Shown here one piece after another: positions 5,353 to 39,246 of a DNA stretch of 64,000 nt. The stretch comes from a virus. Numbering within the stretch: the first letter of the stretch is position 1; every line of letters starts with the position of its first letter. The notes beneath the pieces are model-generated. The model did not search any database. It had not been told where the DNA came from and saw only the letters and a list, made by a program, of their open reading frames with translations. The position numbers and the translations under genes were made by a program. The stretch is taken from positions 1-64,000 of the IMG/VR virus record IMGVR_UViG_3300028840_006907; one strand, given 5' to 3'.

Positions 5353-6360
5353 TTAATCTACCCATTGAATTTTTCTACGGTACTGACCTGTTACTTCATC
5401 TATATCAGAGACATTTCCTGCTTCCTTTACTATTAAATTTAATTTACGTTTTAATTCTAGCTGAAGATCATCACTTTTTATTATTTCGGGAGAAGTATGT
5501 TTCTCCAAAAAATTATTTTTTAAATCAAGCAATTGTTTTTCAATGCTCACATCTCCAACAAAATTGAGTTCTGAAAAATCATCAATAAATTTTTTAAGTG
5601 AATTAATAGTAGGGCCTTTAACAATTTTCCCTGATTTCATATTGGTGGCGATTTTATCACAAAGAGTTACTACTTGTTCACGAAGATTTGTAACAACCTC
5701 ATTGATAAAAGAACCAATCTTTTCTTGGGCCTCTTTCTGATAAACATCGTAGGCAATATTCTCTTTTGCAATTTTATCTTCAGAAACTTTTCTCATTTTC
5801 GGTAGAGCAATTTCAAATATATTCCAGGTTAAAGAGAACCTATTTCTTAATGAAGTTGTGCTTGGATAGTATGATTTTATTCGGTCAAGAAAATTTGTGA
5901 CGAATTCTTCCTCTTCGTTTTCTTTACCTTCAATACTGAATTCATGAACACCTATTTTTGTTTGTCGGTTATAGGCAGCTTTGGCTGCTTCCTCATAAAT
6001 AGGTAGCATCTCTTTTCGTAATTTGTCGTAATCAACAATCAGGTTATCGATTAATTTATTATATGCCTCCTGATATTCCTGAAGAGTTTGCAGTATTTTT
6101 AAAAATTTCTTTTTGGGTACAAACCGTGCTGAACTTATAGGGAATTTAAAACTGTTCGTCTCAACTAGAAACCGAGCTTTACTTTCAATAGATCTGAATT
6201 TATGTATGGTTTCTTTTGGAACGAGCATCTTCTTACCAAGAAGATAAACATTAGATATAGTGTCTTTTTCTAATCCCAAGTCTTGAGCAGTCAGGATTTT
6301 TGCTCCAGTCCAGAACCGCACTTTAATTTCAACTAAAACACCATCTTTAAATATATCCAT
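5353..6360 (-). CDS. DUF3150-like protein (plasmid/phage-associated)
   Basis: N-terminal VLVEIKVRFWTGAKILTAQDLGL pattern recalled as typical of DUF3150; 335 aa. Confidence 0.4.
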   Translation of the reverse strand: MDIFKDGVLVEIKVRFWTGAKILTAQDLGLEKDTISNVYLLGKKMLVPKETIHKFRSIESKARFLVETNSFKFPISSARFVPKKKFLKILQTLQEYQEAYNKLIDNLIVDYDKLRKEMLPIYEEAAKAAYNRQTKIGVHEFSIEGKENEEEEFVTNFLDRIKSYYPSTTSLRNRFSLTWNIFEIALPKMRKVSEDKIAKENIAYDVYQKEAQEKIGSFINEVVTNLREQVVTLCDKIATNMKSGKIVKGPTINSLKKFIDDFSELNFVGDVSIEKQLLDLKNNFLEKHTSPEIIKSDDLQLELKRKLNLIVKEAGNVSDIDEVTGQYRRKIQWVD

Positions 6361-6386
6361 AATTATTTTCCTATCATTAATAAGTG

Positions 6387-6420
6387 CTGTCCCTTTAATG
6401 AAAAAGGGACAGTGTTTTTT
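6387..6420 (+). terminator. hairpin plus T-run oriented for plus-strand transcription
   Basis: ctgtcccttt...aagggacag stem followed by tgtttttt, overlapping stop of 6419-7981 gene. Confidence 0.35.
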
Positions 6421-7981
6421 ATAAGTTTAATTTCCTTTTACCTATTACCTGTTCAGCCTTCATCTCTATTGAAGCTTTTTTCACTCTACGTTTTTCAGAC
6501 CATTCACGGCCTTTCTTAATATCCTCGGCATAAAGCTGTGCTGTAAGTGATACTTCTTTAGCACTTGTAACAAGATCTTCAGTGGAGATTTCCTGATTTT
6601 TGCTGAATGAAAATTTCAGAGTATCATTAATCCAAACTTCAATTTCAGATCCACTAAAATCTTTAGTGGATTTAACTAATTGCTTTATGTCGAAGTTGCT
6701 GGGGTCACGATTTATTTTTCCCAAATGTATTGAGATAATTTTCTCTCGTTCACTATCATAAGGGAAATCAACCCAGAAGATTGCATCCATACGACCACCA
6801 CGAATTAGTTCAGGAGGTAGTTTCGTTGCATCGTTTGAAGTAGCTGCAATGAATACATCAGTTGTTCTTTCAGCCATCCAGGTTAAAAGTGTTGCTAGCA
6901 TTTTTTGAGAAGTCTCATGAACATGCCCACTTTTATTATTAGGAAAAGCTTTTTCGATTTCATCTATTCGTAAGACACAGGGAGCATTTGCATCAACGAT
7001 ACTGAGACATCTTCTTATTTTCTCTTCTGATTCTCCTACAAGACTGCCTAAGAGTGCACCTACATCAAGACTGAATAATGGTCGTTCCCAAACATTGGCG
7101 ATAACTTTTGCAACAAGAGATTTCCCGGTTCCAGGAGGGCCTACGAATAGGGCACCTTTGGGAGGAAGTATTCCATATTCTCTGGCTTTCTCAGTGAAAC
7201 AATTCTTTCTAACCAGGAGCCATTCTTTAAGGTTATCAAGTCCACCAATGTCATCAAGAGTTTCTGTTACACTAATAACATTTAAGAGCCCTGTGTTTTT
7301 AACAACTGTGGCTTTTTCTCTATTAATAACATTAATGTCAAGACATTTTCTTTCAACAATGGAAAGAGAATAAGCATTCTCAGCTTCATCAGATGTCATT
7401 CCTAAGGCTGCTTCAATAAGGGAAGTATCGTTTTTGGGGTACTCTATGGAATCTTCAACTGATCTAGCGTTTTCATAAGCTCGTTGACATACTTTTCTTA
7501 AAGTATTTGTATTTGGAAGTTTAAAATCAATTACAGTTATTTCTTTCTTTAATTCATCTGGTATTGATGAACAGCAAGAAACAACAGCCAAAACTCTACC
7601 GGTAGATCTGCAGATTGGAATTATATTTCGTATTTTTCGTTGAATAAAATCTTTTTTAATATAATGGTGGAAATCTAATAGAAAAAAGATAGAATTCTCT
7701 TCCACCTCTTCTGAACTTATCCAATTAAGAGCCAACATTGGATCATCTGTTTTAGTTTTTATATCTAATTTATTTTCTAAAAGGATATTATTATCATTTA
7801 TTTCTCGGAGTTTGATTCCATCAACTCTGTCCCAAGAATAAAATTTATAATTTCCTTTGTCAAGTTTGTTCATTTCATTTGCTAGGGTTCTTATCGCCCT
7901 ATGTTCTTCATGGGTCTGTATCCACAAAATTGTATAACCGGCACGTATATAATTTGAAAAGATGTGTTCTTTATTTTCCAT
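6419..7981 (-). CDS. AAA+ ATPase with N-terminal domain of unknown function
   Basis: Walker A GPPGTGKS, Walker B VLRIDEIEKA, sensor region TSNDATKLPPELIRGGRMD. Confidence 0.85.
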   Translation of the reverse strand: MENKEHIFSNYIRAGYTILWIQTHEEHRAIRTLANEMNKLDKGNYKFYSWDRVDGIKLREINDNNILLENKLDIKTKTDDPMLALNWISSEEVEENSIFFLLDFHHYIKKDFIQRKIRNIIPICRSTGRVLAVVSCCSSIPDELKKEITVIDFKLPNTNTLRKVCQRAYENARSVEDSIEYPKNDTSLIEAALGMTSDEAENAYSLSIVERKCLDINVINREKATVVKNTGLLNVISVTETLDDIGGLDNLKEWLLVRKNCFTEKAREYGILPPKGALFVGPPGTGKSLVAKVIANVWERPLFSLDVGALLGSLVGESEEKIRRCLSIVDANAPCVLRIDEIEKAFPNNKSGHVHETSQKMLATLLTWMAERTTDVFIAATSNDATKLPPELIRGGRMDAIFWVDFPYDSEREKIISIHLGKINRDPSNFDIKQLVKSTKDFSGSEIEVWINDTLKFSFSKNQEISTEDLVTSAKEVSLTAQLYAEDIKKGREWSEKRRVKKASIEMKAEQVIGKRKLNL

Positions 7982-7998
7982 TTTTCAATTCCTTGAAT

Positions 7999-8202
7999 TT
8001 AAAATTGATTGACTATCTGCTTTATTACTAAAATTCTATTAAGGATTTTATTGTAGGATAGATTTAATTCGTTTTGAATATCTTTAAATGAATAGTTATT
8101 CAGAAAATAAAAAGATGCTATAGTATAAGTTATCCTATCTACTTTTGACTTTAAATAATTCATAATGTCTTTGGAATAATTATTTGCATGTGGCATATTC
8201 AT
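7999..8202 (-). CDS. sigma-70 region-4-like HTH protein
   Basis: ITYTIASFYFLNNYSFKDIQNELNLSYNKILNRI is paralogous to C-terminus of 8180-8800 product. Confidence 0.35.
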   Translation of the reverse strand: MNMPHANNYSKDIMNYLKSKVDRITYTIASFYFLNNYSFKDIQNELNLSYNKILNRILVIKQIVNQF

Positions 8203-8800
8203 TATCCTTTGACTTTGAAAACTTATATACTATTTGTTTAATTTTTGTAATTTTTCTGAGGATTGTATTGTAGGATACTTTTGCAGTATCTTGAATTTCT
8301 TTCATTGAATAACAATCCAGAAGATAAAGACATGCAATGAAATAAGTTATATCATTGAGTTGATTTCTTAGATATTTCATGGTTTCATCAGAGATCAAAG
8401 TATCATCTATTGTTTCGTTAAAGTTAGGCCGGGTAGTATAATCAATATGATTTTTAAGGGTTTTATTATTATTCCTTTCTTCACCATCACTATTATTTTC
8501 ACGCATTGTGATATACATATCAATAGGGAAAAATTTAGGTCTTCGTGATATTGTTCTTATGTAATGAAGGGCATAGCCTTGAACTTTATGTACAAAATAT
8601 GTTTTTAAATAACATCCTTTTGAAAGATCATATTGTTCAAGTAACTCGGATTCAGCTAGTTTTAAAATGAGGTGTTGAAACATCTCACATGGTTCAACAA
8701 TTTTCACAAATTTCATAATGTGAAAATTTAAAATATAATCAATTTCTTCTCTGTTTAGGGTATAGAATTCCCAGAAGTCAGGGTGATATTTTAAATCCAT
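8180..8800 (-). CDS. putative sigma-factor-like transcription protein
   Basis: C-terminal ITYFIACLYLLDCYSMKEIQDTAKVSYNTILRKI resembles sigma-70 region 4.2 HTH. Confidence 0.4.
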   Translation of the reverse strand: MDLKYHPDFWEFYTLNREEIDYILNFHIMKFVKIVEPCEMFQHLILKLAESELLEQYDLSKGCYLKTYFVHKVQGYALHYIRTISRRPKFFPIDMYITMRENNSDGEERNNNKTLKNHIDYTTRPNFNETIDDTLISDETMKYLRNQLNDITYFIACLYLLDCYSMKEIQDTAKVSYNTILRKITKIKQIVYKFSKSKDNEYATCK

Positions 8801-8809
8801 AATAAAACC

Positions 8810-9064
8810 TCATTTTGTGAGACCATCAATTTCTTTCTGGACATTGGTCCAATATTCATGGTCGGTTCCGTTTCCTTTAATTGTGTTAATTTTTTCTCGA
8901 ATCCTTTTTGTTTCTTTCGAGATTTGTCTTTGTGTATTTATGTTTGAAACAGCTCTGTCAGATAGATCATGTGACAGAGCATCAAATGATTTTCCTATAG
9001 CATTCATGATCTTTCTAAGAAAGATCAGTATAGCGATAAGTCCGATAAATGCTAAAAGGGCCAT
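8810..9064 (-). CDS. small membrane protein
   Basis: N-terminal hydrophobic helix ALLAFIGLIAILIFL. Confidence 0.4.
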   Translation of the reverse strand: MALLAFIGLIAILIFLRKIMNAIGKSFDALSHDLSDRAVSNINTQRQISKETKRIREKINTIKGNGTDHEYWTNVQKEIDGLTK

Positions 9065-9220
9065 GTAAGCCTCCTTTATTTTTAACCACAGTATGGATTA
9101 ATGTTAAAACATTTTTCCTTTTTATTTTTATTGCATTTCTCTTTGCATAGAGTACATAAAACCGGAGCAATTTTCGGGTGAAACCATGGACTGAATACCC
9201 GCTCACCGTCGAATACTAAT

Positions 9221-9499
9221 TCAATAGGTGTTAAAATCTCTGTTTTCTTCTTCATTATCTACCTCTGTATCTTGATAATACTCTGATTTCATTTCTCTAT
9301 TTTCTGTTTTATTACCAAAGGCTTTTTCAATAAATTCAGTTTTTTCAATACATTCATTACCTACAAAGCCCTCAGTTTCTTTATGGACAGTTTTACCATC
9401 CCATTCAAATGTTAATTTTATTTCAGGCATTGTTTTCATTCCTTTTTTGATTTGCTTCTTCAAATAGTTTGATAATAGTGCTATCATGAATAAATTCAT
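9221..9499 (-). CDS. hypothetical protein (start uncertain)
   Basis: ORF overlaps upstream gene; internal Met likely true start. Confidence 0.3.
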   Translation of the reverse strand: MNLFMIALLSNYLKKQIKKGMKTMPEIKLTFEWDGKTVHKETEGFVGNECIEKTEFIEKAFGNKTENREMKSEYYQDTEVDNEEENRDFNTY

Positions 9500-9743
9500 G
9501 TTCTTTTATAAAACCATGCTCTTCAAAAGTACTTCTTATTCCATGCATGATTAAATTGTAACGATTCATTAAGTCAGGAATTTTATCATCGGATTTAAGA
9601 ATGTTTATCATTTTCTTTCTATGTTTAATATTTATAATGATTGAGGTAATCATAATAGCAATAATAAAAGCCACAATAGAAAAAACTATTGTCATTACTA
9701 TACTTACATCTTGTAGAAAAAATTTTTGAATATTATTATACAT
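9423..9743 (-). CDS. membrane protein
   Basis: Hydrophobic helix VMTIVFSIVAFIIAIMITSIII. Confidence 0.4.
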   Translation of the reverse strand: MYNNIQKFFLQDVSIVMTIVFSIVAFIIAIMITSIIINIKHRKKMINILKSDDKIPDLMNRYNLIMHGIRSTFEEHGFIKEHEFIHDSTIIKLFEEANQKRNENNA

Positions 9744-10134
9744 AAGCTCTTAATACTATACGATCCTCTTCATCAACAGTTTCTTCATAACTTAAACACA
9801 TTGAATCATATTCTGATTTGGCCCTTTCAACATTATAATAAGTGAAAAGTTTCTTCTGCCACTCTTCACCATATCCATTTGCTTCATCAATATGAGCTAT
9901 ATAATTTCCTTCAACAGTTTGTTCAAAACCGAAGTCATTATGGTAATTACCAATATGTTCTTTACGGATAATAATATGACCTAGTTTTTCTGTTGGATTT
10001 CCTTGCCAATCATTTAACTTATTTGCTATATCAAATATCTCAATCTGCTCCTCGGTAAAACCCATTCGAATCAAGGCTTTAACCAAAGAATCTTTATCGT
10101 TGATTATTGTCACTATGTCAACGTAATGACTCAT
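9736..10134 (-). CDS. hypothetical protein
   Basis: 132-aa ORF. Confidence 0.5.
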   Translation of the reverse strand: MSHYVDIVTIINDKDSLVKALIRMGFTEEQIEIFDIANKLNDWQGNPTEKLGHIIIRKEHIGNYHNDFGFEQTVEGNYIAHIDEANGYGEEWQKKLFTYYNVERAKSEYDSMCLSYEETVDEEDRIVLRAYV

Positions 10135-10281
10135 ACATTTTCCTCGCTCTGATATTGTAAGTTTAATAATTTGAGGTAGTAAGGTTTAAAATAAACAGGA
10201 ATAAAAAACCTGTCAACACTTTTTTAATTGAGATCAATTAAAAATTTTTTACCTAGAAAAATACCTCAATTTAATCGATTT

Positions 10282-10761
10282 TTATTGATGATGCTCGATG
10301 GAATTTCCTCGAAAAAAAGGATTCGAAAATGTTCCATCTTCATCACCGGTGAAATATACCCAACCACTGTCAACGAAATTAAATTTATTACTTAAATATT
10401 TATATTTTCGTTCAAAAGCTTCTCTATCGGTATAAATAATACAAGTTAAAGCGCTGACTGTGTGGGGGTGTTCTTCTATAAATTCAGAATCCAGATCTTT
10501 TTTTTCTGATTCATAGGATAAAAGATCTGCAATTAATATAAAAGCATTGTATTTAGCGGTTAATTGTTTGAATTGTTTTCTGAATTTCGTTATATCTTCA
10601 GCAGTAATTAAATCAATATCATAAAAGATAAGCTCATATTTATCTGTTACTCCAAAAAGCATAGGAGGTAGGTTCTCAGTTGCTACCAATTGCGCCTTAG
10701 AATCCTTAATACATTCTTGAGCTTTCTCTTTTAACATCTTTAAATCCATCATTATACGCAA
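10282..10761 (-). CDS. hypothetical protein
   Basis: 159-aa ORF overlapping upstream gene end. Confidence 0.5.
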   Translation of the reverse strand: MRIMMDLKMLKEKAQECIKDSKAQLVATENLPPMLFGVTDKYELIFYDIDLITAEDITKFRKQFKQLTAKYNAFILIADLLSYESEKKDLDSEFIEEHPHTVSALTCIIYTDREAFERKYKYLSNKFNFVDSGWVYFTGDEDGTFSNPFFRGNSIEHHQ

Positions 10762-11786
10762 ACCTTTTCATTTAATTTTTTAACAATCTTTTTGTTTGTT
10801 AATCTTTCAAGTTCGCCATCCAATATATCATCATAAGCAGTCTTATCTTTACCTGGAATGATGTCCCAGGCATATGTTCCGTAATTTTCCTGTACATGTT
10901 GCATCAGATTTTTGATTTCAACTACTTCATCATCATTGAGGTAACCCAAAACATATGCAACACCAACTTTTGTAGGTAACCCATATTTACAGATTAATTC
11001 AATGGGAGCAAAGGCATCATCGGAAAATTTATTTTCCAAGACACAGATACTGGCTTCTGCAGTATGTCCTGCTTCGATATATCCTTTTAATTGTTTAGCC
11101 TCTTTTCGTAATGTACTGGCATTTATATCCTTCTTAACCAGATAATCGACAATTTCTTCTGGCAATCCGTATTTCTGGATTTCCTTTCTTAATTCATTCT
11201 CAATCTCGATCTCAGTATTTTCTTCTTCATAATTAGATAAATCATTTGCTAGCCCTCTCATATTAGGAGAGAGTTCTGGATAATACTTATAGATAGTATT
11301 CAGGAAAAGCATCCGTTTAACAATACTGGCTTTTTTATGGAGTTGATATTGAATCTTCATATACTGAATAAAATTGGAACGTAAAGTGTTATCAGTATCC
11401 AGAGCTTCGGGAGCCCATCTTAAATCAGAGTCAATGATGTTACCACTCTGCCATTCCTGAAACCAGGCAAAATATATCTGATTATTTTCTTTGTCTCTTT
11501 TATATTTGAGATCTTTATCAATGAATCGAACTTTGAATTGATTCATAGGATCATTGGGATCATCAATTGTTCTGACTCTTCGTGCCATCCTTTTTTCATG
11601 TATGATACGTTCAAATCTCTCTTCAACTTCATCCTGGGATAACATTCTAAGAGGTCTGAATATAAATTCAAATATTTGATAAATAACATAGAGTATGAAA
11701 CTACCAACAATGAGGTAAATCATATCATACTGTAATTTATCTGTCTTATTCTGTTTAGGTGCTGTTGGAGGTAAATTACTTTTCAT
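10752..11786 (-). CDS. membrane-anchored protein
   Basis: 344 aa; hydrophobic helix IYLIVGSFILYVIYQIF near N-terminus; overlaps upstream gene. Confidence 0.5.
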   Translation of the reverse strand: MKSNLPPTAPKQNKTDKLQYDMIYLIVGSFILYVIYQIFEFIFRPLRMLSQDEVEERFERIIHEKRMARRVRTIDDPNDPMNQFKVRFIDKDLKYKRDKENNQIYFAWFQEWQSGNIIDSDLRWAPEALDTDNTLRSNFIQYMKIQYQLHKKASIVKRMLFLNTIYKYYPELSPNMRGLANDLSNYEEENTEIEIENELRKEIQKYGLPEEIVDYLVKKDINASTLRKEAKQLKGYIEAGHTAEASICVLENKFSDDAFAPIELICKYGLPTKVGVAYVLGYLNDDEVVEIKNLMQHVQENYGTYAWDIIPGKDKTAYDDILDGELERLTNKKIVKKLNEKVCV

Positions 11787-12355: not shown

Positions 12356-13540
12356 TTATCCTCTTACATAATCAGTTACACAGTTAATTTCATCATCACT
12401 TATCCAGGCACCGTGATATCGTTCAGGTTCAGAAGCACCAGGATAAATCATTAACATATCTCCCTTACCGGCCAGAGCTTCAGCTCCATTGCAATCAAGA
12501 ATAACTCTGGAATCATTTTTGGATGATACTTGGAATGAGATCCTTGAAGGCATATTGGATTTAATAAGACCAGTGATAACTTTAACGATAGGCTTTTGAG
12601 TTGCAAGTACCAGATGGATACCTACTGCTCTGGCTAATTGAGCCAACCGTACGATCATTTTCTCAAGTTCTTTACCTGAAGTCATCATAAGATCAGCCAT
12701 CTCATCAACCACAGTTACTATATAAGGAAGTTTTGTATCGGAATTTTTATTAAAACTTTCGATATTTCTTACTCGATAATCAGCTAAGAGTTTATATCTA
12801 CGATCCATTTCTTCAATTAAATCTGAGAACACATGCACCGCTTCTGAGGGCTCGGTAACCACAGGGCATCTCAGGTGGGATAAATTATTATATGACGCCA
12901 TTTCCACTCTCTTGGGATCGACAAGGACAAGCTGGCATTCATCTGGTGTTCGAGTAAATAATATTGAAAGAAGAATACTATTTATACATACAGATTTACC
13001 TGATCCAGTTTGACCTGCGATTAAAAGATGAGGCATAGTAGTCAAATCGATTATTTTTGGATTACCAATAGTATCGGTTCCAAGTACGATGGGAATCTTG
13101 GTATTGGAATCAGTGGTAAAGATATCACGGAAACCGATAATGGATCTTGTTTCATTCATCATTTCTATTCCAACACAAGCTGTACCTGGAATGGGTGCTT
13201 GGATTCTGATATTGGATGACATTAAAGCCATTGCGATATCTTCAGTGATCTTTTTAATCTGAGCAATCCTTACACCTTTTGATAATTTCAGTTCATATCG
13301 GGTAACCACTGGGCCATGTTTAATATCCTGGACAGCAGTATCGAATCCAAGTTCAGCGATCCTGTTTTCAAGATCATGAGAGCTTAAACTGTTGGGTATT
13401 CTATTGGATGAATACTCGTTTAAGAGTCCTAAATGAGGTTTTCTATATCTTTTGTTTTTCTTCTTTTTACATGCATCTTCCTCGGAATTAAGGAGTTGCA
13501 TTACATTTAAGAGCTTTCTGAATTTTGTTGATTTGTTCAT
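12356..13540 (-). CDS. FtsK/SpoIIIE-family DNA translocase motor (alpha/beta domains only)
   Basis: GPVVTRYEL, APIPGT..VGIE, Walker A GQTGSGKS, Walker B VVDEMADLMM; no N-terminal TM or gamma domain. Confidence 0.8.
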   Translation of the reverse strand: MNKSTKFRKLLNVMQLLNSEEDACKKKKNKRYRKPHLGLLNEYSSNRIPNSLSSHDLENRIAELGFDTAVQDIKHGPVVTRYELKLSKGVRIAQIKKITEDIAMALMSSNIRIQAPIPGTACVGIEMMNETRSIIGFRDIFTTDSNTKIPIVLGTDTIGNPKIIDLTTMPHLLIAGQTGSGKSVCINSILLSILFTRTPDECQLVLVDPKRVEMASYNNLSHLRCPVVTEPSEAVHVFSDLIEEMDRRYKLLADYRVRNIESFNKNSDTKLPYIVTVVDEMADLMMTSGKELEKMIVRLAQLARAVGIHLVLATQKPIVKVITGLIKSNMPSRISFQVSSKNDSRVILDCNGAEALAGKGDMLMIYPGASEPERYHGAWISDDEINCVTDYVRG

Positions 13541-15269: not shown

Positions 15270-17330
15270 TTATTCCACAGTGCGAACAAGTAAATATTTA
15301 GCTCCATTATATGTTGGAAAGTATGAATAATAATTTCCTCTATTGAAGAAACTTTCGGTCATAGTAAATTTTACCATTGGATCAATTACTGATGGACCAG
15401 TATAATCAGTTTGTGATTCACCTGGAATCGCATTTTCATATTTATCATTCAATCTGATCTCTCCCAGGACCACTACACCATTATTAAATGCGTAATGGAA
15501 TTCAGCTTCAGTAGAAATTCGGAATCCATTCTTGGTCAGATCCATTTGAATATCCAAACTATCAGTATAAGTATAAGCTGTATCCAATCCAGCACCTTTT
15601 GATTTCTCGTTACAGTATTTTATTGCTTCAAAGTAATTACCTAAACTGTAGGTAGTAGTATCAAACCAGAAATCATAACTGAAACTGACATCGATAGGAG
15701 GTAAAGGAAACCAATGATATTGGTATACATTATTCTGTAATTTACCGAACATGGTAGATTGATTTTTCGATTTTATCTTATACTCACCATTAAATAGGAA
15801 AAGAACTTTAAGTGTAACAGTATCCAAAGCAGTATTACCATCATCATCGGTAACCCGAAGGACACATTCAATAACAGAATCTGAGTTCATTGGAATAACA
15901 TATTCATATTTACTGGTATCTGTAGCAGATTCATCTGTAACAAATGTTCCGGTATTCCCAATGTCCCATTCCCATTTTACAATGTGACCATAGCCATCTG
16001 TGGCAGTACCATGAAGAATAACTGTATCTCCTACAACAATCATAGAGTCACTGTTATTAACGAGGAAAGAAGGTCTGCACTGTCCTTCAACAAAGGTACT
16101 CGCTATAGGCTCATCTTTGACCACTGTAACAGTTATTTGATCTGAAGATGTGTTACCATCATTATCAGTAACTCGAACCACATAGACCATATCACCATTT
16201 CTTTGTCCGGTGACATCGGGAACAATCACTGAGGTGTCACCTGTGCTTGTTTCTTTAAATCCTTCACCATTAATATCCAGTTCCCATTTTGAGATTCCTC
16301 TGCTACCGATAGGGTCAGTGGCAATACAGGTAATATGGATTGTATCATAGATACTAACAGTAGTATCATTTCCTATAATCTGTACTTCTGGTTTTGCATT
16401 TTCTGCACTAAAGGGAGGAATTTCAATATCACCAGCTATACTATTGAAAAGAATATTTGGACTTTGACCGATAAGTTTATCTTGGTTATTAAATACATCC
16501 ACATACACATTATATTTATTTGTACCTACAGAATAAATGAAGTAAACGAAACCACTATAGGTATTACTGGAAGTATTATGCCAGAGTTCAGCGGTCTTGG
16601 TACCATTGATATCATCACCAGTAATATTGGCTTGGATAAGGCTGATTGTATCAGGGAAAAACATAGGTAAGTATAAGTTTCCATAGATATCTCTCTGTAT
16701 GACAAACAGATCCGGTAGGGTATCAATCCATTCACTGATATTGGTAGTAGAGAGTACTTGGTTATCTTTAATCAGATTTAGAGTATCATTAATATCATCT
16801 TGTGATAATCTAGCAAAGACACCACCACTGATTGTGGCATTGTCCCCGATCCGGGTTAAACTTGGTTTACCTCTATCATAGAGACTTGGTGATTTAAAGT
16901 TATGTACTTTATTGCCAATCTTTAATTGAACGATATACATTTGTGCTGATAAACCAGTGGCAGGATTAATTGAATAGTTACCAGGATCAAGTTTTCGGTT
17001 TAAAGCAGTGAAGACATTTTGACCACTCAGATTATATACCTTAATAGAAACCTGAGTTTTCTTAAGAACCGGGAACCAGAGTCGAGAGTTATCATATTTA
17101 ATTGTATTAAGGGATACTGAAGATTGGTTTTTAATATCATTGGAAAGTTTTGATAAGATATAGATACCATCAGCACCGGTAGTATCAGAAATACCTTGTC
17201 CTTTTAATGTCGCAATAACGCCAAACATCGGACTGTTATTGTTGTCCAGAACCTTACCTGTAATATATAAGTCCTGGGCATTAACTGTAATTAATAAAAA
17301 TAAAACGATAAGAATAAAAGATTTGTACAT
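15270..17330 (-). CDS. secreted multi-domain protein with CarboxypepD_reg-like and PKD-like repeats
   Basis: Signal peptide MYKSFILIVLFLLITVNA; GKVLDNNNSPMFGVIATLKGQGISDTTGADGIYIL; two VRVTD(N/D)DGNT PKD-like units. Confidence 0.7.
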   Translation of the reverse strand: MYKSFILIVLFLLITVNAQDLYITGKVLDNNNSPMFGVIATLKGQGISDTTGADGIYILSKLSNDIKNQSSVSLNTIKYDNSRLWFPVLKKTQVSIKVYNLSGQNVFTALNRKLDPGNYSINPATGLSAQMYIVQLKIGNKVHNFKSPSLYDRGKPSLTRIGDNATISGGVFARLSQDDINDTLNLIKDNQVLSTTNISEWIDTLPDLFVIQRDIYGNLYLPMFFPDTISLIQANITGDDINGTKTAELWHNTSSNTYSGFVYFIYSVGTNKYNVYVDVFNNQDKLIGQSPNILFNSIAGDIEIPPFSAENAKPEVQIIGNDTTVSIYDTIHITCIATDPIGSRGISKWELDINGEGFKETSTGDTSVIVPDVTGQRNGDMVYVVRVTDNDGNTSSDQITVTVVKDEPIASTFVEGQCRPSFLVNNSDSMIVVGDTVILHGTATDGYGHIVKWEWDIGNTGTFVTDESATDTSKYEYVIPMNSDSVIECVLRVTDDDGNTALDTVTLKVLFLFNGEYKIKSKNQSTMFGKLQNNVYQYHWFPLPPIDVSFSYDFWFDTTTYSLGNYFEAIKYCNEKSKGAGLDTAYTYTDSLDIQMDLTKNGFRISTEAEFHYAFNNGVVVLGEIRLNDKYENAIPGESQTDYTGPSVIDPMVKFTMTESFFNRGNYYSYFPTYNGAKYLLVRTVE

Positions 17331-17497
17331 AAAAGTAACTCCTTTAATTTTAATGTGTATGATCCATATTACTTAACCTCAATATTTCGAGGACATTACA
17401 AAATCTTAATAAATTATACCCAGAAAATTTCAAATAAACAAGATTAAAGTTTTAGCATTTACTTGTGAGAAAGTTATTGGTAGGTACTCCTAAATGT

Positions 17498-17528
17498 CAA
17501 GGGCACCAGGAAGTAGCCAGTGCCCTTG
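17498..17528. promoter_or_regulatory. perfect 9-bp inverted repeat with 13-nt spacer
   Basis: caagggcac...gtgcccttg in the 310-bp gap upstream of the PKD gene start. Confidence 0.3.
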
Positions 17529-17639
17529 AAGTCATCATTAATCATCAGTGGAGTAAAGTATTGTTTATATTTCATTATATTTTTATGGGAAGGAATTTAC
17601 AAGAAAAATTTTGAATATAAAGTAACATGGAATGGATAA

Positions 17640-18146
17640 TTATTTTTTATTGTTTTTGATTTTTAATAGATTCATTTTTGTTTTAAGTGTTTTTTCATTA
17701 ATCGATAATGCAGTCGCAACTTTTCCAGCAGTTTTAAATTGATGAAATAAAGCTTCAATGATAACTTTTTCTTGTTCATCTGTGACATTTACATGTATCC
17801 CTAATTTCTTGATTCGAGCACGGACTGAAGACACACTGGTCTTTAATGCTTTTGCAGTATTTTGAATGTTATATTTATTCTTTTTCAGAATATTCTCAAA
17901 CCATTCTTTTCTTTTCTCAGGATCTTTTGGTTCTCCTTCCAGGTAACCATAATCGTTATCAATTCCTAAACGTTTCATTTGTTCATAAATAGTTTGGGGG
18001 GATTTACCCAGTGCTTCTGCAACTTTCTTACCGTTACCATATTGATTTAAAAGGGCTAAAAGAATAACTTTTTTCTTTTTATCTTCTTTTTGAATACGTT
18101 CTTTAAAACGTTTTTTCTTTACTTTTGAATCTAATTTGGTTGTCAT
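17640..18146 (-). CDS. DNA-binding protein with three tandem Fis-type-like HTH motifs
   Basis: KVAEALGKSPQTIYEQMKRLGI, NTAKALKTSVSSVRARIKKLGI, KVATALSINEKTLKTKMNLLKI. Confidence 0.55.
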   Translation of the reverse strand: MTTKLDSKVKKKRFKERIQKEDKKKKVILLALLNQYGNGKKVAEALGKSPQTIYEQMKRLGIDNDYGYLEGEPKDPEKRKEWFENILKKNKYNIQNTAKALKTSVSSVRARIKKLGIHVNVTDEQEKVIIEALFHQFKTAGKVATALSINEKTLKTKMNLLKIKNNKK

Positions 18147-18195
18147 TATAATTCCTTTGAAAATTGTGAATAAATATTTAATTTACAAATTTAAA

Positions 18196-18519
18196 TTATT
18201 GAATTAATTTTGTAGCCATCTCATAATAGATTTTGTCCATTTTAGGACATTGTCTTTCCATTTTCTTTAACCAGTCAATAACTGAATCGCTCTCTTCAAT
18301 TGGTGGTACAGTTTCAATAATTTTAAAAAACTTTTTGAAAATTCCAGTACCACATGTCTCATAGTAACCACTATTACCATAATCAGGATAAACTTGGTAA
18401 TATGGTCTACCATTTTTATCTTTCTCTTTATATTCACAGAAATAATGTTCTCCTAAAGAATAACCTTCCAATCCATTCCTGGCCATAGGAGCTTCGATAC
18501 ATAGACATAATTGAAACAT
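18196..18519 (-). CDS. hypothetical protein
   Basis: 107-aa ORF downstream of NAD-binding gene. Confidence 0.45.
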   Translation of the reverse strand: MFQLCLCIEAPMARNGLEGYSLGEHYFCEYKEKDKNGRPYYQVYPDYGNSGYYETCGTGIFKKFFKIIETVPPIEESDSVIDWLKKMERQCPKMDKIYYEMATKLIQ

Positions 18520-18539
18520 CTATTACCATCCTTTCATTT

Positions 18540-19607
18540 TTATGGTTTAAATTCTTTATCTATGGCATATTTAATCAATCCAGAGAAATGTTCCAAAACA
18601 TCTGGATATTGAATTGAATTAAATATTTCATGGGATAAATTAGAATTATATTTTTGATTATCTACAGTAATATAAGGAGCGAAAGTTTTACCTACAGTTC
18701 TGTAATATAATTTTTCAAATTTATTTAAATTATTTGGAAATTTATCAACAAATTCAAATTCCTTTACATTTAGCATATTTAAAATAACGGAAAAGTATTC
18801 TTTATGTAATGGAGGATTTGGGTTTATTATATTAAGTTCTGTAAAATCTTCATTGATAGATTTACATATGATTTTAGCAACATAATCTACAGGAACAATA
18901 TTAAGAGTTTCATTTAAATTAATGTGGATTCTAATTGGCATATCCATTTTATATCTATAAAAAAAGTATGCCCAACCATAGAATACATCAAATTTTAAAG
19001 TAATATATAAAGGGAAATCAATTAAACGACCACAGATAACTGAAGGTCGTAATATCTGATAATGAATATTATATTTTTTACAATAACTTGATATATATGT
19101 TTCCATAGTTGATTTAGTTTCTTCATAGGGATTTCTATAAATATTTTTAATTCTATTTACAAATGCTGTACTTATATAAATAAATTTATAAAGTTTTTTA
19201 CTATCGATATTATTTATCAAATTTATAGTTCCCAAATTATTATTTAATAAAAGTTCTTGTTCTGTAGCTTTATCTGTCATTAAATTTGTTGAAGCGGCAC
19301 AATGTATTACTGTCAATTTCTTAGTATCAATATTAGAAATTATATGAAATAATTCTTTACAATTTAAATGACATGGGATAATTTGAAACCTTTCTTTAAG
19401 TATATTTATTGAATATTTCTTTATGAATTCTGGAATATTTTCTGGAGCAAAAATATTTATGCCTCTTTCTATAGGAGTCATATTATTAAAAGGTCTAATT
19501 AATAAAAAAAGTTTAGATGATGAATTATATCTAATAATTTTTTCAAGCAATTCAAAAAAGATATGACTACCTAATAGACCTGTAACGCCTGTAATTAAAT
19601 AATCCAT
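18540..19607 (-). CDS. NAD(P)-binding epimerase/thioester-reductase-like protein
   Basis: N-terminal ITGVTGLLGSH Rossmann motif, YISTAFV, YEETK (YxxxK). Confidence 0.55.
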   Translation of the reverse strand: MDYLITGVTGLLGSHIFFELLEKIIRYNSSSKLFLLIRPFNNMTPIERGINIFAPENIPEFIKKYSINILKERFQIIPCHLNCKELFHIISNIDTKKLTVIHCAASTNLMTDKATEQELLLNNNLGTINLINNIDSKKLYKFIYISTAFVNRIKNIYRNPYEETKSTMETYISSYCKKYNIHYQILRPSVICGRLIDFPLYITLKFDVFYGWAYFFYRYKMDMPIRIHINLNETLNIVPVDYVAKIICKSINEDFTELNIINPNPPLHKEYFSVILNMLNVKEFEFVDKFPNNLNKFEKLYYRTVGKTFAPYITVDNQKYNSNLSHEIFNSIQYPDVLEHFSGLIKYAIDKEFKP

Positions 19608-20973: not shown

Positions 20974-21882
20974 TCAATACTTCGACTGATTACATCCATG
21001 ATTAAATTTGTATTCATTTAATTCATCATTGGACATATGTCCATGTTTCTTGATCGTTTCTTCTAAAATCTGAGGTAATAACTTTTCACCCCAAACTCCC
21101 ATGTTCGGGACAATCTCTCCTCTTGAATTTTTGGATTTGGTAGGGTCTCCTTCAAGAGCATTGGCTCTGATTTTATTTCGTTCCAGTAGCTCCCATTCCT
21201 CATAGTCCTCACGATAAAATCTGTACAACCATAAAAGTTCGATCTCACTCATGAAAGGACATAATAAACAGTTCGATGGATAAGGCACATGCAAGCCCGT
21301 AGAGGCCATGTAATCCTGGCAATCCTTTCTATCCATTCCCATCTCTATGAGTGGATAGATAACCTCTATGGCTTTCTCCTGCCATTTTGGGCGCTCACCC
21401 TTGTTAACACGTTTTTCTTCTCCTTTGGCAATACCGATAAGCATATTGATTTTATCATATGTTTCAGCAAATTGTTTCAATCCTTTCTTTCTTCCTGATT
21501 TAAATCCATATTCTTTTTGAATCCAGTATTCGAGATATTTATATATAGGTCTCAATTTAAGTCTTTCGGTACAAGTTTTGGGAAAACATTTGCTTCCAAT
21601 TCTATTTTTTGTTTTATAGAAAAATCTTAATGTTTGCCAGTCGGGAGAGTGGAATCCCATGTCGTTTGTAAGATGAACAAATTCTACTACATTTTGAGAA
21701 CAGAATTCCTTTATAAATTGTATATGTTTATAGGTATGGGGATGCTCATCACCAGTATCGGCCATGATCACCAAAAGCCGTCCTGGTGCATATTTTTTTC
21801 TGAAATTGTTATCGAGGGCGTACTTGTAAAGTAAAGTGGTGCTGTCTTGTCCGCCCCCGTAACTTAAGACCGTAAGTTCCAT
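20974..21882 (-). CDS. PAPS-reductase/ATP-sulfurylase-like (adenine-nucleotide alpha-hydrolase) protein
   Basis: N-terminal LSYGGGQDSTTLL PP-loop variant of SGGxDS. Confidence 0.65.
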   Translation of the reverse strand: MELTVLSYGGGQDSTTLLYKYALDNNFRKKYAPGRLLVIMADTGDEHPHTYKHIQFIKEFCSQNVVEFVHLTNDMGFHSPDWQTLRFFYKTKNRIGSKCFPKTCTERLKLRPIYKYLEYWIQKEYGFKSGRKKGLKQFAETYDKINMLIGIAKGEEKRVNKGERPKWQEKAIEVIYPLIEMGMDRKDCQDYMASTGLHVPYPSNCLLCPFMSEIELLWLYRFYREDYEEWELLERNKIRANALEGDPTKSKNSRGEIVPNMGVWGEKLLPQILEETIKKHGHMSNDELNEYKFNHGCNQSKY

Positions 21883-22707
21883 CTATTTATTTTTCTCCTG
21901 GTTTGAAGTATCTTTTTTATAAAGGATAAGATCCTTTATTTCATGAGGATTATAATAGAATTGTGTACTCGGATTTTCTTGAGCCATTGAAGTAATTGTT
22001 TTCAGTAATTCTTTTATTAATTGATTTTCTATAGTTTTATATTTTTGAGATGGTAATGGCTCTCCTTTCTTTATAAATAAATTTCTTCCTTTGCATAGTA
22101 AAAGTACTCTACCTCTATTAATCAAATAAGAAGCTTTTTGTTTTGTTATCCCAACGGATTTAGCCCATTCATCAATAGACTGATAACCTGATGGTGGTTT
22201 AATATCTTTCAGTTTTGGTTGAAGAAGAGAAAGGTTTGAAAAGAATTGTTTATCTTTATGTCTATTTATTCGATTACCTTTACAATGTCTACAAGGTTTT
22301 TTACATAAACCTATAAAATGTATTCGTAGATTTCCACAATTTTTACAAAATCCAAGTCTAGGTTTATTTAAAAATAATGTTTTTAGACGCTCGGGATTAT
22401 GATAAATCTGTCTATATTCTTTTCTCTCATTAATTGTTTTGTCTTTGTCATAAGGTCTTGTAGGGATACCTGTATAATATAAATCTATAGCCTCTTTATT
22501 ATATTCTAAAAAAGATACCCAGGCTTTTTCAACTAATAATTCTGGGTCTTTTTTAGCAAGACTTACATGTATATCTTCAAAAAATATGTTATAATTTGAG
22601 AGTGTTTTAAATCCTTCATAAAGCTGTTCCATATCCCATACATGAAAGATATACCTATTAGCATGAAAGCAATTGAAGGCATCTAAAATTTCATCATAAT
22701 CCATCAT
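21883..22707 (-). CDS. zinc-finger protein with HTH-like segment
   Basis: CKNCGN...CKKPCRHCKG cluster; abuts PAPS-reductase-like gene. Confidence 0.5.
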   Translation of the reverse strand: MMDYDEILDAFNCFHANRYIFHVWDMEQLYEGFKTLSNYNIFFEDIHVSLAKKDPELLVEKAWVSFLEYNKEAIDLYYTGIPTRPYDKDKTINERKEYRQIYHNPERLKTLFLNKPRLGFCKNCGNLRIHFIGLCKKPCRHCKGNRINRHKDKQFFSNLSLLQPKLKDIKPPSGYQSIDEWAKSVGITKQKASYLINRGRVLLLCKGRNLFIKKGEPLPSQKYKTIENQLIKELLKTITSMAQENPSTQFYYNPHEIKDLILYKKDTSNQEKNK

Positions 22708-23279
22708 TTCTCCAATTGTACCAAAATTCTCACCAAGTCACTTTTAGTGAAAGTGACATTACCTACTATAAGTTTTCCCCTTTTTATTTGATAAGGGAGA
22801 GAAATATCTGCTGATTCTTTTTGTGAAGTTTCAATAGCTTTGGTAGTTTTAAGGGATTCAATATAAGCTCTTTGTTCTGATCGATTACGAATATGGTCAG
22901 AAGCAAAAACTTGTTTTACTTGATCTGGTTGAAGATTATGTATACTTACTTTCAACACATCATTATTTGGTAATAAAACATCTAGAGGTTCTTCTACATA
23001 TTTAGATTGTTCTGCAAAAGAACATTTTCCAAGTTTCTTTGCCCCTGTTGTAAGATTAGTGAGGAGTTTTACATGAAGAGAACCTCTTCCTACAGATTCA
23101 AACCTGCGCCATGCAGTAGAGGAAATATCAGGATAGGCTTCTTGAAAATCGTATATTGCATCTGGATTGTCATCTATTGTTTTAACATATAGCTTACATG
23201 CTTTTAAAAGATATCCAATACCTTTTGTAAATAACTCTCCAAATTTATTAATTGCTGTTTCTTGAATATTATTTTTCAT
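22704..23279 (-). CDS. hypothetical protein
   Basis: 191-aa ORF, 4-nt overlap with downstream gene. Confidence 0.5.
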   Translation of the reverse strand: MKNNIQETAINKFGELFTKGIGYLLKACKLYVKTIDDNPDAIYDFQEAYPDISSTAWRRFESVGRGSLHVKLLTNLTTGAKKLGKCSFAEQSKYVEEPLDVLLPNNDVLKVSIHNLQPDQVKQVFASDHIRNRSEQRAYIESLKTTKAIETSQKESADISLPYQIKRGKLIVGNVTFTKSDLVRILVQLEK

Positions 23280-23499
23280 TTATTGTACCTTCTAAAGAAA
23301 TATGTGAATTGAATCCTTTAGAGAAATATTGTGCTGGGTTAAATTTAAAAATTGCTATTCCTCCTATTGCCACAAGAAAAATAAAGAGAATGATTCTCCC
23401 GATCTTTCTTGGCAATTCTTTTCTTCGACGTTTAGCCATAAAATCTTTTTCATTTATTTTCATTATTATCCTCATTATTATCCTCATTATTATCCTCAT
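23269..23499 (-). CDS. small membrane protein with N-terminal (MRII)n repeat
   Basis: 12-nt tandem repeat encodes MRIIMRIIMRIIM; then basic stretch and TM helix; start set to first ATG. Confidence 0.35.
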   Translation of the reverse strand: MRIIMRIIMRIIMKINEKDFMAKRRRKELPRKIGRIILFIFLVAIGGIAIFKFNPAQYFSKGFNSHISLEGTINEK

Positions 23500-23508
23500 T
23501 ATTATTAA
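23461..23508. repeat. 12-bp tandem repeat, about 4 copies
   Basis: cattattatcct x3 plus one degenerate copy. Confidence 0.9.
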
Positions 23509-23708
23509 TCGCACTTTACATGGTAATTTAAGAATGATGCTTCATCCCATTTTTTTCCATTGTCTAATACAACTATATCACCTTCCCGTTCAATGACGGG
23601 AGGTTCAATAGCAACGACAACAACAATATCATTGTCTAATGTGCTTCGATATTTTATTCCAATTTCAATCATATCCTTCCTCCTGGTTAAATGGCATACT
23701 CCATCCAT
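23505..23708 (-). CDS. hypothetical protein
   Basis: 67-aa ORF. Confidence 0.35.
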   Translation of the reverse strand: MDGVCHLTRRKDMIEIGIKYRSTLDNDIVVVVAIEPPVIEREGDIVVLDNGKKWDEASFLNYHVKCD

Positions 23709-35238: not shown

Positions 35239-35740
35239 TATATATACCCAATTACCTTTTTTATCCAGTAATATAACATTTTAATACTATCAAATACCAA
35301 CGTCCTATATGGTGCGTCCGTATTAATCTCTATTAAATCAGTCGTCCTATATCTTTAAACTATGGTCTATATAGTAATAAACACGATCTATAAATCAAAT
35401 AACAATTTTAAGGTAATCCTCTTACTCATCAATATCCATATCTTTATAATAAAAAACCCACACATAGCACCTATAAAAATGTGGAACCCTTTAAGGCATT
35501 TCTTAAGTAACTATGTATGGGCACTGAAAGGGATTTATACAAATCCCATTATTATCTTAATATATTAACTTACTATATGTCTATACCTATAAACATATCC
35601 CCCTATATATTACTAATTAGTAATATGAATGTAATTATCCCTATCCCCTATATCTAATAACCTATAAACTATCCATTAAGTATATCTGTATCCTATCCAT
35701 ATAATAACTCTGTAAGAGAAAATTAATATGTATCAGTATG

Positions 35741-35890
35741 CCCATTACCTTGAATAGAATAATGAGTAAGTCAGTACCAGGAACTATACCATCATGAACT
35801 ATGAACTCGGAACTATGTCAGGGAAAACTTGAGTACTTACCCATTACCTTGAATAGAATAATGGGTAAGTCAATACCAGGAACTATGTCG
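35741..35890. repeat. about 48-bp direct repeat x2 (period 99 bp), each with internal inverted repeat
   Basis: cccattaccttgaatagaataatg(a/g)gtaagtca(g/a)taccaggaactat at 35741 and 35840. Confidence 0.85.
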
Positions 35891-36057
35891 GGAATTTCCA
35901 ACGAGTATTTTGAAAAAATTTATTCTCCCTGCAAAACCCGGAACCGATTTCCTAGTTCCTACAATCATATATTAATAATCTTTTGTTATCTGTATAAGTA
36001 AATTTACACAGGGTAATTGACTGATCAAAGTAAGTTAATGTCTTCCCAAACCGAGTC

Positions 36058-36141
36058 TTTGACTTGGGGAAATTGGTTGTTGACTGTAGAGAAGAATAAT
36101 TTCACTTGCTCATTTGGGTATTTGACTTGGGGAAACTGGTT
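36058..36141. repeat. 21-bp direct repeat x2 (period 63 bp)
   Basis: tttgacttggggaaa(t/c)tggtt at 36058 and 36121. Confidence 0.85.
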
Positions 36142-36511
36142 CCCGACTATCAAAAGTGGGGTTAAAAACGAGGGGGGTTACCCCTAAATTTGATATTTCC
36201 AGACTGGGAACTCAGACAGGGGCGATTCCAGACTGTTTCTGGCCAGACTGGGGGAAAGACCTAAGACGGTCTTAGTCCACTCATCCAAGACCATTGCCAT
36301 TTATCTGATCCGTAGCTCCAGACCTGGAATGACTTGGATAGAATTTTATATGTTACTGCCAGACAGAAAATGATCTTTGAGTCTCCACGTCCCAGGATTT
36401 CCTGGACACCGTGTAATCCACGGAACTCTAGGCTATCGGCTGATTTAATTTCGTTCTGAACTTCTATGGGAAGTTCATTCATGTTTATTTGATCTATACT
36501 TGTGATATGCA

Positions 36512-38534: not shown

Positions 38535-38557
38535 TCCTTTTTAAGAGATGTCAGATT
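38535..38557 (-). promoter_or_regulatory. conserved 23-nt leader/translation-initiation element (copy 1)
   Basis: Minus strand AATCTGACATCTCTTAAAAAGGA, 10 nt before ATG. Confidence 0.5.
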
Positions 38558-38579
38558 ATAACTTTTAGTTTCTTTTGAT

Positions 38580-38837: not shown

Positions 38838-38843
38838 AATATT

Positions 38844-38866
38844 TCCTTTTTAAGAGATGTCAGATT
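38844..38866 (-). promoter_or_regulatory. conserved 23-nt leader/translation-initiation element (copy 2)
   Basis: Identical 23-mer, 7 nt before ATG. Confidence 0.5.
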
Positions 38867-38871
38867 GTCAT

Positions 38872-39243: not shown

Positions 39244-39246
39244 AGT

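Follow-up and report, generated by a model that had tools for sequence, protein, structure and literature searches.

Fis-type helix-turn-helix (HTH) domains usually work in pairs, through dimerisation. In the eukaryotic Myb R1R2R3 and Pax paired domains, tandem tri-helical HTH repeats of ~50 amino acids (aa) read adjacent stretches of one site as a monomer. Among archaeal CRISPR-repeat-binding proteins, Cbp1 lays its HTH1-3 5' to 3' along the 25-bp CRISPR repeat (PMC3597662, PMC10883916), and the linked-HTH DNA readers of the Myb and Pax type are discussed in PMC3597662. The gene described here lies at 17640-18146, on the minus strand, within positions 1 to 64,000 of the virus record IMGVR_UViG_3300028840_006907 (IMG/VR); this whole stretch of 64,000 nucleotides is referred to as the window. 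Its 168-aa product, P0001, is very probably a DNA-binding, regulator-like protein, since it is recognised from its sequence and predicted structure as a chain of three tandem Fis/NtrC-type HTH modules.

The gene and its product

The open reading frame (ORF) and its parts are arranged as follows:

17640..18146, minus strand: complete coding sequence of the triple-HTH protein (P0001), ATG start, 168 aa (ORF listing and sequence)
18152..18158, minus strand: putative Shine-Dalgarno-like AAAGGAA, 6 nt before the ATG, read from the sequence
18081..18146, minus strand: lysine-rich N-terminal arm, aa 1-22, MTTKLDSKVKKKRFKERIQKED, net charge +5
17958..18080, minus strand: unit A, aa 23-63, tri-helical Fis/NtrC-type HTH, recognition helix SPQTIYEQMKR, KKKKVILLALLNQYGNGKKVAEALGKSPQTIYEQMKRLGID
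17916..17957, minus strand: linker 1, aa 64-77, NDYGYLEGEPKDPE, net charge -4, with the family-invariant G-E-P (E72, P73)
17793..17915, minus strand: unit B, aa 78-118, tri-helical HTH, recognition helix SVSSVRARIKK, KRKEWFENILKKNKYNIQNTAKALKTSVSSVRARIKKLGIH
17778..17792, minus strand: linker 2, aa 119-123 (VNVTD), short
17655..17777, minus strand: unit C, aa 124-164, divergent tri-helical HTH, recognition helix NEKTLKTKMNL, EQEKVIIEALFHQFKTAGKVATALSINEKTLKTKMNLLKIK

The ORF coincides exactly with the coordinates given in an earlier note on this DNA, which named no strand. P0001, whose sequence begins MTTKLDSKVKKKRFKERIQKEDKKKK, has a mass of 19.4 kDa and an isoelectric point (pI) of 10.0, and contains 35 lysines (21% of the residues) and 6 arginines. 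The lysine-rich N-terminus claimed in that note is readily seen, as residues 1-26 carry 11 K and 2 R; the arm motif MT-x-KL-[DN]-[SP]-K-V-K is kept in a subset of relatives, and unit B is the most basic unit (net +10). The chain stops 4 residues past unit C. Because an identical protein is recorded on public contigs, the largest of 469,617 bp, and full-length homologues reach 49% identity, the ORF is, on the sequence record, a genuine gene of a very large (~470 kb) phage-like element.

Three tandem Fis/NtrC-type modules

Whole-protein comparison with Pfam matched HTH_30 (34.4 bits), HTH_50 (33.2 bits) and HTH_8, the Fis family (33.0 bits, E 4.9e-8), all above their gathering cut-offs, which for HTH_8 is 22 bits; the comparison with Fis-family hidden Markov models (HMMs) raised in the earlier note was therefore positive. 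When the units were scanned separately, unit A reached 23.1 bits for HTH_8, above the cut-off, and 26.6 bits for HTH_50; unit B scored 18.5 bits for HTH_30 and 17.2 bits for HTH_8 (E 0.004), both under the cut-offs, and unit C had no Pfam match at E ≤ 0.1. Because neither unit B nor unit C reaches the HTH_8 cut-off alone, both are tied to unit A only through profile-profile homology and fold. The signature of unit A is G-N-x-x-x-[AV]-A-x-x-L-G-x-S-x-x-T-[IL]-Y-x-x-[LM]-K-[KR]-[LY]-G-I.

Segments A, B and C of P0001 align in one register. In the single sequence, the A-C self-alignment has z=8.7 and was reached by 0 of 2000 shuffles, the A-B self-alignment has z=3.7 and was reached by 8 of 2000, and the B-C self-alignment was not significant against 2000 shuffles. 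Family profiles of the unit positions, compared with hhalign, gave probabilities of 99.0% (A-B), 99.5% (B-C) and 99.7% (A-C), with E from 9e-18 to 6e-26, again in one register and over 43-44 columns. Identity at the same position between proteins is 43% for A-A, 32% for B-B and 36% for C-C; within one protein it is 25-26% for A-B or B-C and 37% for A-C, the latter about equal to the between-protein C-C value. Since likeness at the same position across proteins exceeds that of A-B or B-C within a protein, the sequences indicate that the triplication is old and that the three positions have separate identities, each kept in relatives with two to four units; the repeats of Cbp1 and Myb are likewise position-specific (PMC3597662).

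Two independent AlphaFold2 (AF2) runs, built on alignments of 2 and 6 sequences, gave models with mean predicted local distance difference test (pLDDT) values of 77 and 79, each with nine helices, three per unit: residues 7-36, 39-46 and 50-59 in unit A, 76-89, 94-100 and 105-115 in unit B, and 123-137, 140-146 and 151-160 in unit C. The N-terminal arm is modelled as helical, running on into helix 1 of unit A. The linkers are non-helical, spanning 15 residues (aa 61-75) and 7 residues (aa 116-122), and pLDDT is lower in the first. The predicted template modelling score (pTM) is 0.38-0.43, meaning that the units are confident and their mutual arrangement is not. In Foldseek comparisons with the PDB, using the model of pLDDT 77, a single unit (which one is not given in the output) fits the NtrC4 DNA-binding domain (3e7l/4fth), NtrX (5m7n) and a sigma-54 activator (2m8g) at a root-mean-square deviation (rmsd) of 0.9-1.4 Å over 43-45 residues with probability 0.90-0.99, and no solved structure in the PDB matched the whole chain (best E 0.38). 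Given the low pTM and the missing whole-chain PDB match, the models suggest that the relative placement of the three modules is not fixed and that their arrangement is flexible.

Together, these results uphold much of the earlier description and revise its measurements. The three HTH-like units stand beyond chance by Pfam, shuffles, hhalign profiles and both AF2 models, the structure-prediction check returned three helices per unit in each model, and the Fis-type-like label is right at the level of the module, as the fits to the NtrC4 and NtrX domains illustrate. The unit length of ~22 aa corresponds to the helix-turn-helix core alone, the module being ~41 aa (aa 23-63, 78-118 and 124-164), and the spacing described as equal is in fact 55 and 46 aa from start to start.

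Several known families were considered and set aside. A small terminase subunit was rejected, the PHROGs comparison suggested earlier being negative: phrog_2538 (E 0.022) and phrog_4044 (E 0.14) cover the HTH segment only, and the 168 aa hold no non-HTH core. The comparison with insertion-sequence (IS) models was negative as well, an IS630/Tc1-mariner-type transposase being excluded by an NF033545 score of 16.9 bits against a cut-off of 100 and by the lack of a DDE catalytic domain; the transposase-type HTH_23 (23.8 bits) and HTH_28 (21.3 bits) also fall below their cut-offs, and Mos1 was matched by Foldseek at E 0.38 with probability 0.33. P0001 is not a whole Fis or sigma-54 enhancer-binding protein, as it has no Sigma54_activat or other non-HTH domain; the NCBIfam models for AtoC and NorR match on the HTH only, with 8.6-12.4 bits where the cut-offs are 476-714. 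A sigma factor was likewise rejected (Sigma70_r4_2 E 0.0018, TIGR02985 E 0.0028, far under cut-offs).

A family of tandem-HTH proteins

A word-indexed protein search returned few relatives even with a family profile, and as a single-sequence query only the protein itself and the two-unit P0002. An exhaustive phmmer search covering 1.84 billion representatives recovered, apart from the query, 44 representative clusters with E ≤ 1e-3, of which 21 had E ≤ 1e-10; among the 44, P0003 equals P0001 in length and shares 49% identity with it. When the 45 proteins were scanned with unit HMMs, three units proved the commonest arrangement (~27), ~11 proteins carried two (A+C or A+B) and a few carried four.

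We define the 'GEP-linked tandem-HTH' family in this analysis, with a length of 115-220 aa. P0001 has its A-B-C order with position-specific signatures and the invariant G-E-P ahead of unit B. Alignment A2, built from 25 three-unit members, shows no variation at Y54 or at the E72-P73 of this G-E-P, and GEP-x5-6-KK-x-W also opens unit C in most family members. In most relatives a GEP motif stands ahead of unit C, whereas linker 2 of P0001 has none; the window's sub-clade has lost both this GEP and the family's Q-A-V-Y-E-R-M signature in unit C (Y-E-R in the recognition helix). HTH_8 and HTH_50 are each matched by 23/25 members (best E for HTH_8 3.6e-13), and phrog_323, 'transcriptional regulator, D5-like', by 19/25 (best E 6e-15). 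The names that the relatives carry in their sources are generic COG transfers: 'NtrC family response regulator', 'transcriptional regulator of acetoin/glycerol metabolism' and 'DNA invertase Pin-like'.

A tblastn search of 50,697 phage records returned no sequence relative of P0001 or P0009, and a 20-kb part of the window had no megablast match in phage records. Two scans of IMG/VR, a scan of GTDB genomes and a first metagenome scan returned no relatives; a second metagenome scan returned two loci only (L020 and L021). At the level of fold, Foldseek against BFVD matched many viral proteins to the whole P0001 chain (137-162 columns, probability 0.97-1.00 in the top 20), among them both free-standing proteins 150-170 aa long and the arrays with which phage endonucleases bind DNA. 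The BFVD whole-chain matches and phrog_323 therefore establish that the triple-HTH architecture is recurrent in phages, and the present, metagenome-only family is uncharacterised; our literature search on tandem or triple HTH phage proteins found nothing directly relevant. The statement in the earlier note that such triplicated modules are uncommon is true in part only, given 44 representative clusters, mostly of three units, and the many multi-HTH proteins in BFVD. On present evidence P0001 is a further tandem-HTH protein, very probably a DNA binder and of an ordinary kind, in a family without annotation.

Genomic context

The window has 32% GC, no tRNA genes and largely small genes without assigned function; the few in phage or plasmid-type families are DUF932, GP88, phrog_8638 and a DNA methyltransferase. 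Downstream of the P0001 gene, on the same strand, follow a gene for a secreted 686-aa PKD protein and two small genes, then an opposite-strand 337-aa gene, and then an FtsK-like gene and the block that it heads:

12356..13540, minus strand: FtsK-like alpha-beta DNA-translocase motor, 394 aa (Pfam FtsK_SpoIIIE 1.5e-54, FtsK_alpha 3.5e-22)
5353..11786, minus strand: rest of the block, comprising 344-aa, 159-aa and 132-aa genes, DUF2997, a 206-aa gene, AAA+ and DUF3150 (blastp synteny, Pfam)
6419-7981, minus strand: AAA+ gene, 520 aa (Pfam)
5353-6360, minus strand: DUF3150 gene (Pfam)

The FtsK-like protein matches PDB 2iuu at E 3e-99; no FtsK_gamma was found in it by Pfam, and the membrane domain is also absent. 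Neither Pfam nor the PDB returned a relative of the 344-aa or the 337-aa protein, the PADLOC matches were limited to generic HTH and FtsK domains, and our literature search on the FtsK/DUF3150 block in huge phages found nothing directly relevant.

By blastp synteny, block proteins are shared at 26-60% identity, or 26-50% without FtsK, with contigs carrying P0023, P0007 and the homologue at L021. P0023 (three units, 26% identity to P0001) begins 3 nt past FtsK on contigs of 74,686, 206,170 and 429,332 bp and on a 13,975-bp Logan contig (L004-L007), the longest P0023 record being 474,422 bp; identities to the window on these contigs are 60% for FtsK, 47% for AAA+ and 50% for DUF3150. The three longer P0023 contigs (L004-L006 only) also carry type I-E-like cas genes (Cas3, CasE, Cas1, Cas2) ~8 kb off. 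P0007 (37% identity) starts 2 nt after the FtsK C-terminus and is followed by 88-aa, 343-aa and 157-aa genes (L011). L021 has a three-unit homologue and, 4-6 kb downstream of it, counterparts of the 337-aa, 344-aa, 159-aa and 206-aa genes, with no FtsK homologue. The local gene order of the window recurs at L002 and L010. The small-gene clusters that house the family members at L013 (beside a ParB-type HTH protein), L016 and L018 are unrelated. One clade shows a real linkage to the FtsK block and the family as a whole does not, because L004-L007, L011 and L021 share the block while L013, L016 and L018 do not.

Immediately upstream of the P0001 gene lies a further small gene:

18196..18519, minus strand: 107-aa gene, 49 nt upstream of the P0001 gene, no Pfam match

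Its product is 69% identical to a partial ORF just upstream of the gene for the triple-HTH protein P0010 (L014, 2-193). P0010 is only 33% identical to P0001, its 107-aa-type neighbour being far better conserved, and from these sequences the 107-aa protein and the triple-HTH protein may form a functional pair. The segment 18196-20530, just upstream of P0001, has 24.5% GC compared with ~32% and includes an NAD-binding epimerase/'male sterility'-type short-chain dehydrogenase/reductase (SDR) gene (18540-19607). The position next upstream of the HTH gene is occupied at L010 by an Acyl_transf_3 gene, and in L002 these genes are missing from it; the segment appears to be a variable cargo slot. On the downstream side, the 686-aa protein (15270-17330) has an N-terminal signal-like hydrophobic segment with CarboxypepD_reg-like and PKD domains, shares 54% identity with its L010 homologue and is absent at that position in L002.

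The 309-bp spacer between the P0001 and PKD genes contains a perfect 9-bp-stem hairpin at 17490-17530, CAAGGGCAC-N14-GTGCCCTTG, with a promoter-like TTGTAA-17-TATAAT (17602-17574, minus strand) upstream of it. It is not a canonical terminator, because no T-run follows the hairpin, and Rfam had no match for it or for anything else in the window. A promoter and terminator scan around the P0001 gene did not, for promoters, rise above shuffles (12 against 9.2 +/- 3.7), and a repeat scan of 17200-18700 found weak AT-rich pairs only. In L002, which carries the closest two-unit relative, the HTH gene forms its own transcription unit (1377-1630 and 1988-2129), with an upstream hairpin terminator, the direct repeat GTATCACCTTGAAC x 2, a TTGAAT-17-TATAAT promoter and, after the stop codon, a hairpin and then a T-run; the promoter of the window copy is less clear.

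Proposed mechanism and alternative explanations

The most likely role of P0001, which we favour with some but not great confidence, is that of a regulator or DNA-targeting factor of the phage-like element. The protein would act through three Fis/NtrC-type HTH modules strung by short non-helical linkers behind a lysine-rich arm, so that valency would be built into one chain, which would bind as a monomer and dispense with Fis/NtrC-like dimerisation. The three recognition helices could be placed in successive major grooves. The linkers (15 and 7 residues) would be long enough to reach the neighbouring major groove, and a monomer would then occupy some 25-30 bp (two or three short direct repeats), in the manner demonstrated by experiment for Cbp1 and Myb R1R2R3, the basic N-terminal arm adding non-specific affinity. 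P0001 would be a transcription regulator or a DNA-targeting/architectural factor, and a functional tie to the FtsK/AAA+/DUF2997/DUF3150 block is probable, as the HTH gene lies beside that block in several lineages.

Several observations weigh against this proposal. Unit C has no Pfam match alone and has lost the Y-E-R signature in the sub-clade, and may make no DNA contact. In Cbp1/Cbp2 and Pax the linkers that touch DNA are basic, whereas linker 1 is acidic (net -4). Among elements of 30-51% GC, unit A keeps its recognition helix unusually well, a conservation that would equally suit a conserved protein partner instead of a phage-specific operator. The members at L013, L016 and L018 have no linkage to the FtsK block. 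Lastly, a candidate binding site was not found, the search for a shared DNA motif flanking the homologous genes in ten loci having returned AT-rich 8-9-mers only, nothing meaningful.

Among the alternatives, the one that survives best, although we consider it unlikely, is that P0001 is a largely sequence-non-specific, histone-like protein coating the nucleoid of a huge element. Its 21% lysine, pI of 10 and basic N-terminal arm would suit such a function, as would the flexible multi-domain build and the retention of recognition-helix residues whatever the GC of the element. However, units A, B and C differ in conserved, position-specific ways, which points to a defined composite site, and Fis-type HTH modules normally read bases.

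A second alternative, which we rate as improbable, is that P0001 is a trans-acting DNA-recognition or loading subunit that replaces the gamma domain of a gamma-less FtsK-like translocase. The gamma domain gives cellular FtsK its sequence recognition, and three FtsK gamma winged-helix domains read one 8-bp KOPS (FtsK orienting polar sequences) site. The FtsK-like protein of the window fits this picture as a strong alpha-beta motor match without gamma or membrane domain; in two lineages the HTH gene starts 2-3 nt past the FtsK stop, a gap that suggests co-translation, and in the window it lies 4.1 kb upstream of the FtsK gene on the same strand. Against this, L021 has the HTH gene and the block but no FtsK homologue, the members at L013, L016 and L018 have no FtsK nearby, and the PKD-protein gene and an opposite-strand gene lie between the HTH and FtsK genes in the window. 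We would give only a slim chance to the fuller form of this proposal, in which P0001 would be the dedicated DNA-recognition subunit of an FtsK/AAA+/DUF2997/DUF3150 machine in a clade of ~430-475-kb phage-like elements; were it true, one polypeptide with three readers would direct translocation or segregation of a giant viral genome.

The earlier note had proposed that P0001 recognises a repeated DNA target, possibly one of the arrays in a control hub elsewhere in the window:

51573-51914: 77 bp x 4.4 tandem array
52313-52363: 20 bp x 2.5 tandem array, TGGCGCATATTCTATTATAA
52404-52629: 14 bp x 16 tandem array, ACAGGGAACYGAGC

The three arrays sit in a 1.5-kb non-coding divergent region (51520-53095), where gene strand and GC skew flip sign and GC rises to 41%, and which is a plausible candidate for a replication origin (iterons) or a master regulatory region. 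P0001 as an iteron, origin or array binder, acting there as Cbp1 does on CRISPR repeats, is a doubtful reading. It can draw on arrays that are real and placed at this strand and skew switch, on a three-HTH monomer whose ~25-30 bp could span two 14-bp units, and on the Cbp1 precedent (PMC10883916). However, the arrays are 34 kb away from the P0001 gene, the 14-mer is confined to its array (16/16 window matches) and absent from all 13 fetched loci of relatives, the regions flanking the homologous genes share no motif, there is no sign of co-occurrence, and the relatives associate the gene with the FtsK/AAA+/DUF3150 block instead of an array. What stands of the repeated-target idea is the precedent of Cbp1 for extended or reiterated DNA; the connection to the 14-bp and 77-bp arrays is not supported.

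It is very unlikely that P0001 is what remains of a homing endonuclease, its DNA-binding array standing alone after loss of the nuclease domain. The weakest phmmer matches are indeed HTH arrays with 3-6 HMM-detected units (more when borderline ones are included) fused to HNH (P0036) or Vsr-like (P0041, P0043) nucleases, phrog_8446 'HNH endonuclease' is matched at E 1e-5, and the BFVD matches include phage endonucleases. However, P0001 has no attached HNH, GIY-YIG, Vsr-like or LAGLIDADG domain, the phrog_8446 match (aa 78-164 against profile positions 15-99 of 211) covers HTH units only, and synteny, length and architecture are conserved across lineages at 26-49% identity, unlike in a decaying mobile gene. 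An HTH array that binds protein rather than DNA, as a host RNA-polymerase appropriator or sigma-like factor, is hardly credible either: the highly conserved unit-A surface and the weak sigma region-4 matches speak for it, but those matches are far under their cut-offs, Foldseek gives sigma-28 and SigA probabilities of 0.08-0.12 and there is no sigma region 2.

If the favoured reading of P0001 as a regulator or DNA-targeting factor is true, the recurrent linkage to the gamma-less FtsK block offers a testable handle on the regulation and handling of very large phage-like genomes.

Other features of the window

A 302-aa PAPS (3'-phosphoadenosine 5'-phosphosulfate)-reductase-like protein is encoded at 20974-21882 (Pfam E 0.003; PADLOC SspD E 2.4e-13), is 68.5% identical to an L010 homologue and, judged from these matches, may be a DNA-modification enzyme of the DndC/SspD type. 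The 12-bp unit TCATTATTATCC is repeated perfectly in tandem 3.8 times at 23460-23505; if coding, it would be in frame, and on the minus strand it lies in the 3' end region of an ORF cluster at ~22704-23596.

Within a run of minus-strand genes, 35240-36260 is a stretch of ~1 kb without a minus-strand ORF of at least 40 aa. It holds a 47-nt repeat at 35741 and 35840 that contains CCTTGAATAGAATAATG, a 31-nt repeat at 36055 and 36118, and a 24-bp tandem repeat at 35655-35715; nowhere in the window is GC skew stronger than in the 34-36 kb bin (-0.435). At 38535-39280, the 30-nt motif TCCTTTTTAAGAGATGTCAGATTATAACTT occurs three times in intergenic positions (38535, 38844 and 39251). Because it presents a TATAAT box and then an AAAGGA ribosome-binding site on the minus strand, the copies are probably a reiterated promoter/leader cassette.

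Comparison with known systems

Each unit of P0001 corresponds to the three-helix module of NtrC4, NtrX and Fis (HTH_8, HTH_50), with superposition at ~1 Å over 43-45 residues. Fis/NtrC proteins dimerise to bind, and each of their chains carries a single HTH accompanied by an AAA+/receiver domain or by the Fis N-terminal arm, whereas P0001 has three HTH in one 168-aa chain and no other domain.

Phage multi-HTH proteins, as found in BFVD and in the arrays of HNH, Vsr and LAGLIDADG endonucleases, share the whole-chain fold with P0001. P0001 differs from them in having no nuclease domain, and its GEP linker and A-B-C order are specific to the metagenomic family. If our reading is true, this defines an unannotated GEP-linked tandem-HTH family that databases label by generic HTH or misleading COG names.

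Cbp1, with three HTH, and Cbp2, with two, are the archaeal CRISPR-repeat-binding proteins whose build, small and basic with two or three linked HTH repeats, P0001 shares. Cbp1 is of similar size (17.5 kDa compared with 19.4 kDa) and has three imperfect HTH repeats derived from duplication, and in both cases a repeat resembles its counterparts in other proteins more than the other repeats of its own chain. The likeness to Cbp2 appears to be at a generic HTH level: family unit profiles match it (2lvs) at E 5.8e-4 (B) and 4.2e-3 (C), in the same range as TyrR, Cro and PucR-like HTH and no better than to TyrR or Cro, and Foldseek aligned the whole chain with 2lvs at E 1.9. Cbp linkers are basic, whereas linker 1 of P0001 is acidic (net -4) and carries the GEP motif; Cbp1/2 are crenarchaeal chromosomal genes with a CRISPR-repeat target, whereas the window holds no CRISPR array. 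P0001 has no Myb or Pax Pfam match, and differs from both in linker logic and lineage. If the interpretation is true, P0001 would be a compact natural, monomeric, three-reader Fis-type DNA binder, a bacterial or phage counterpart of Cbp1 and Myb.

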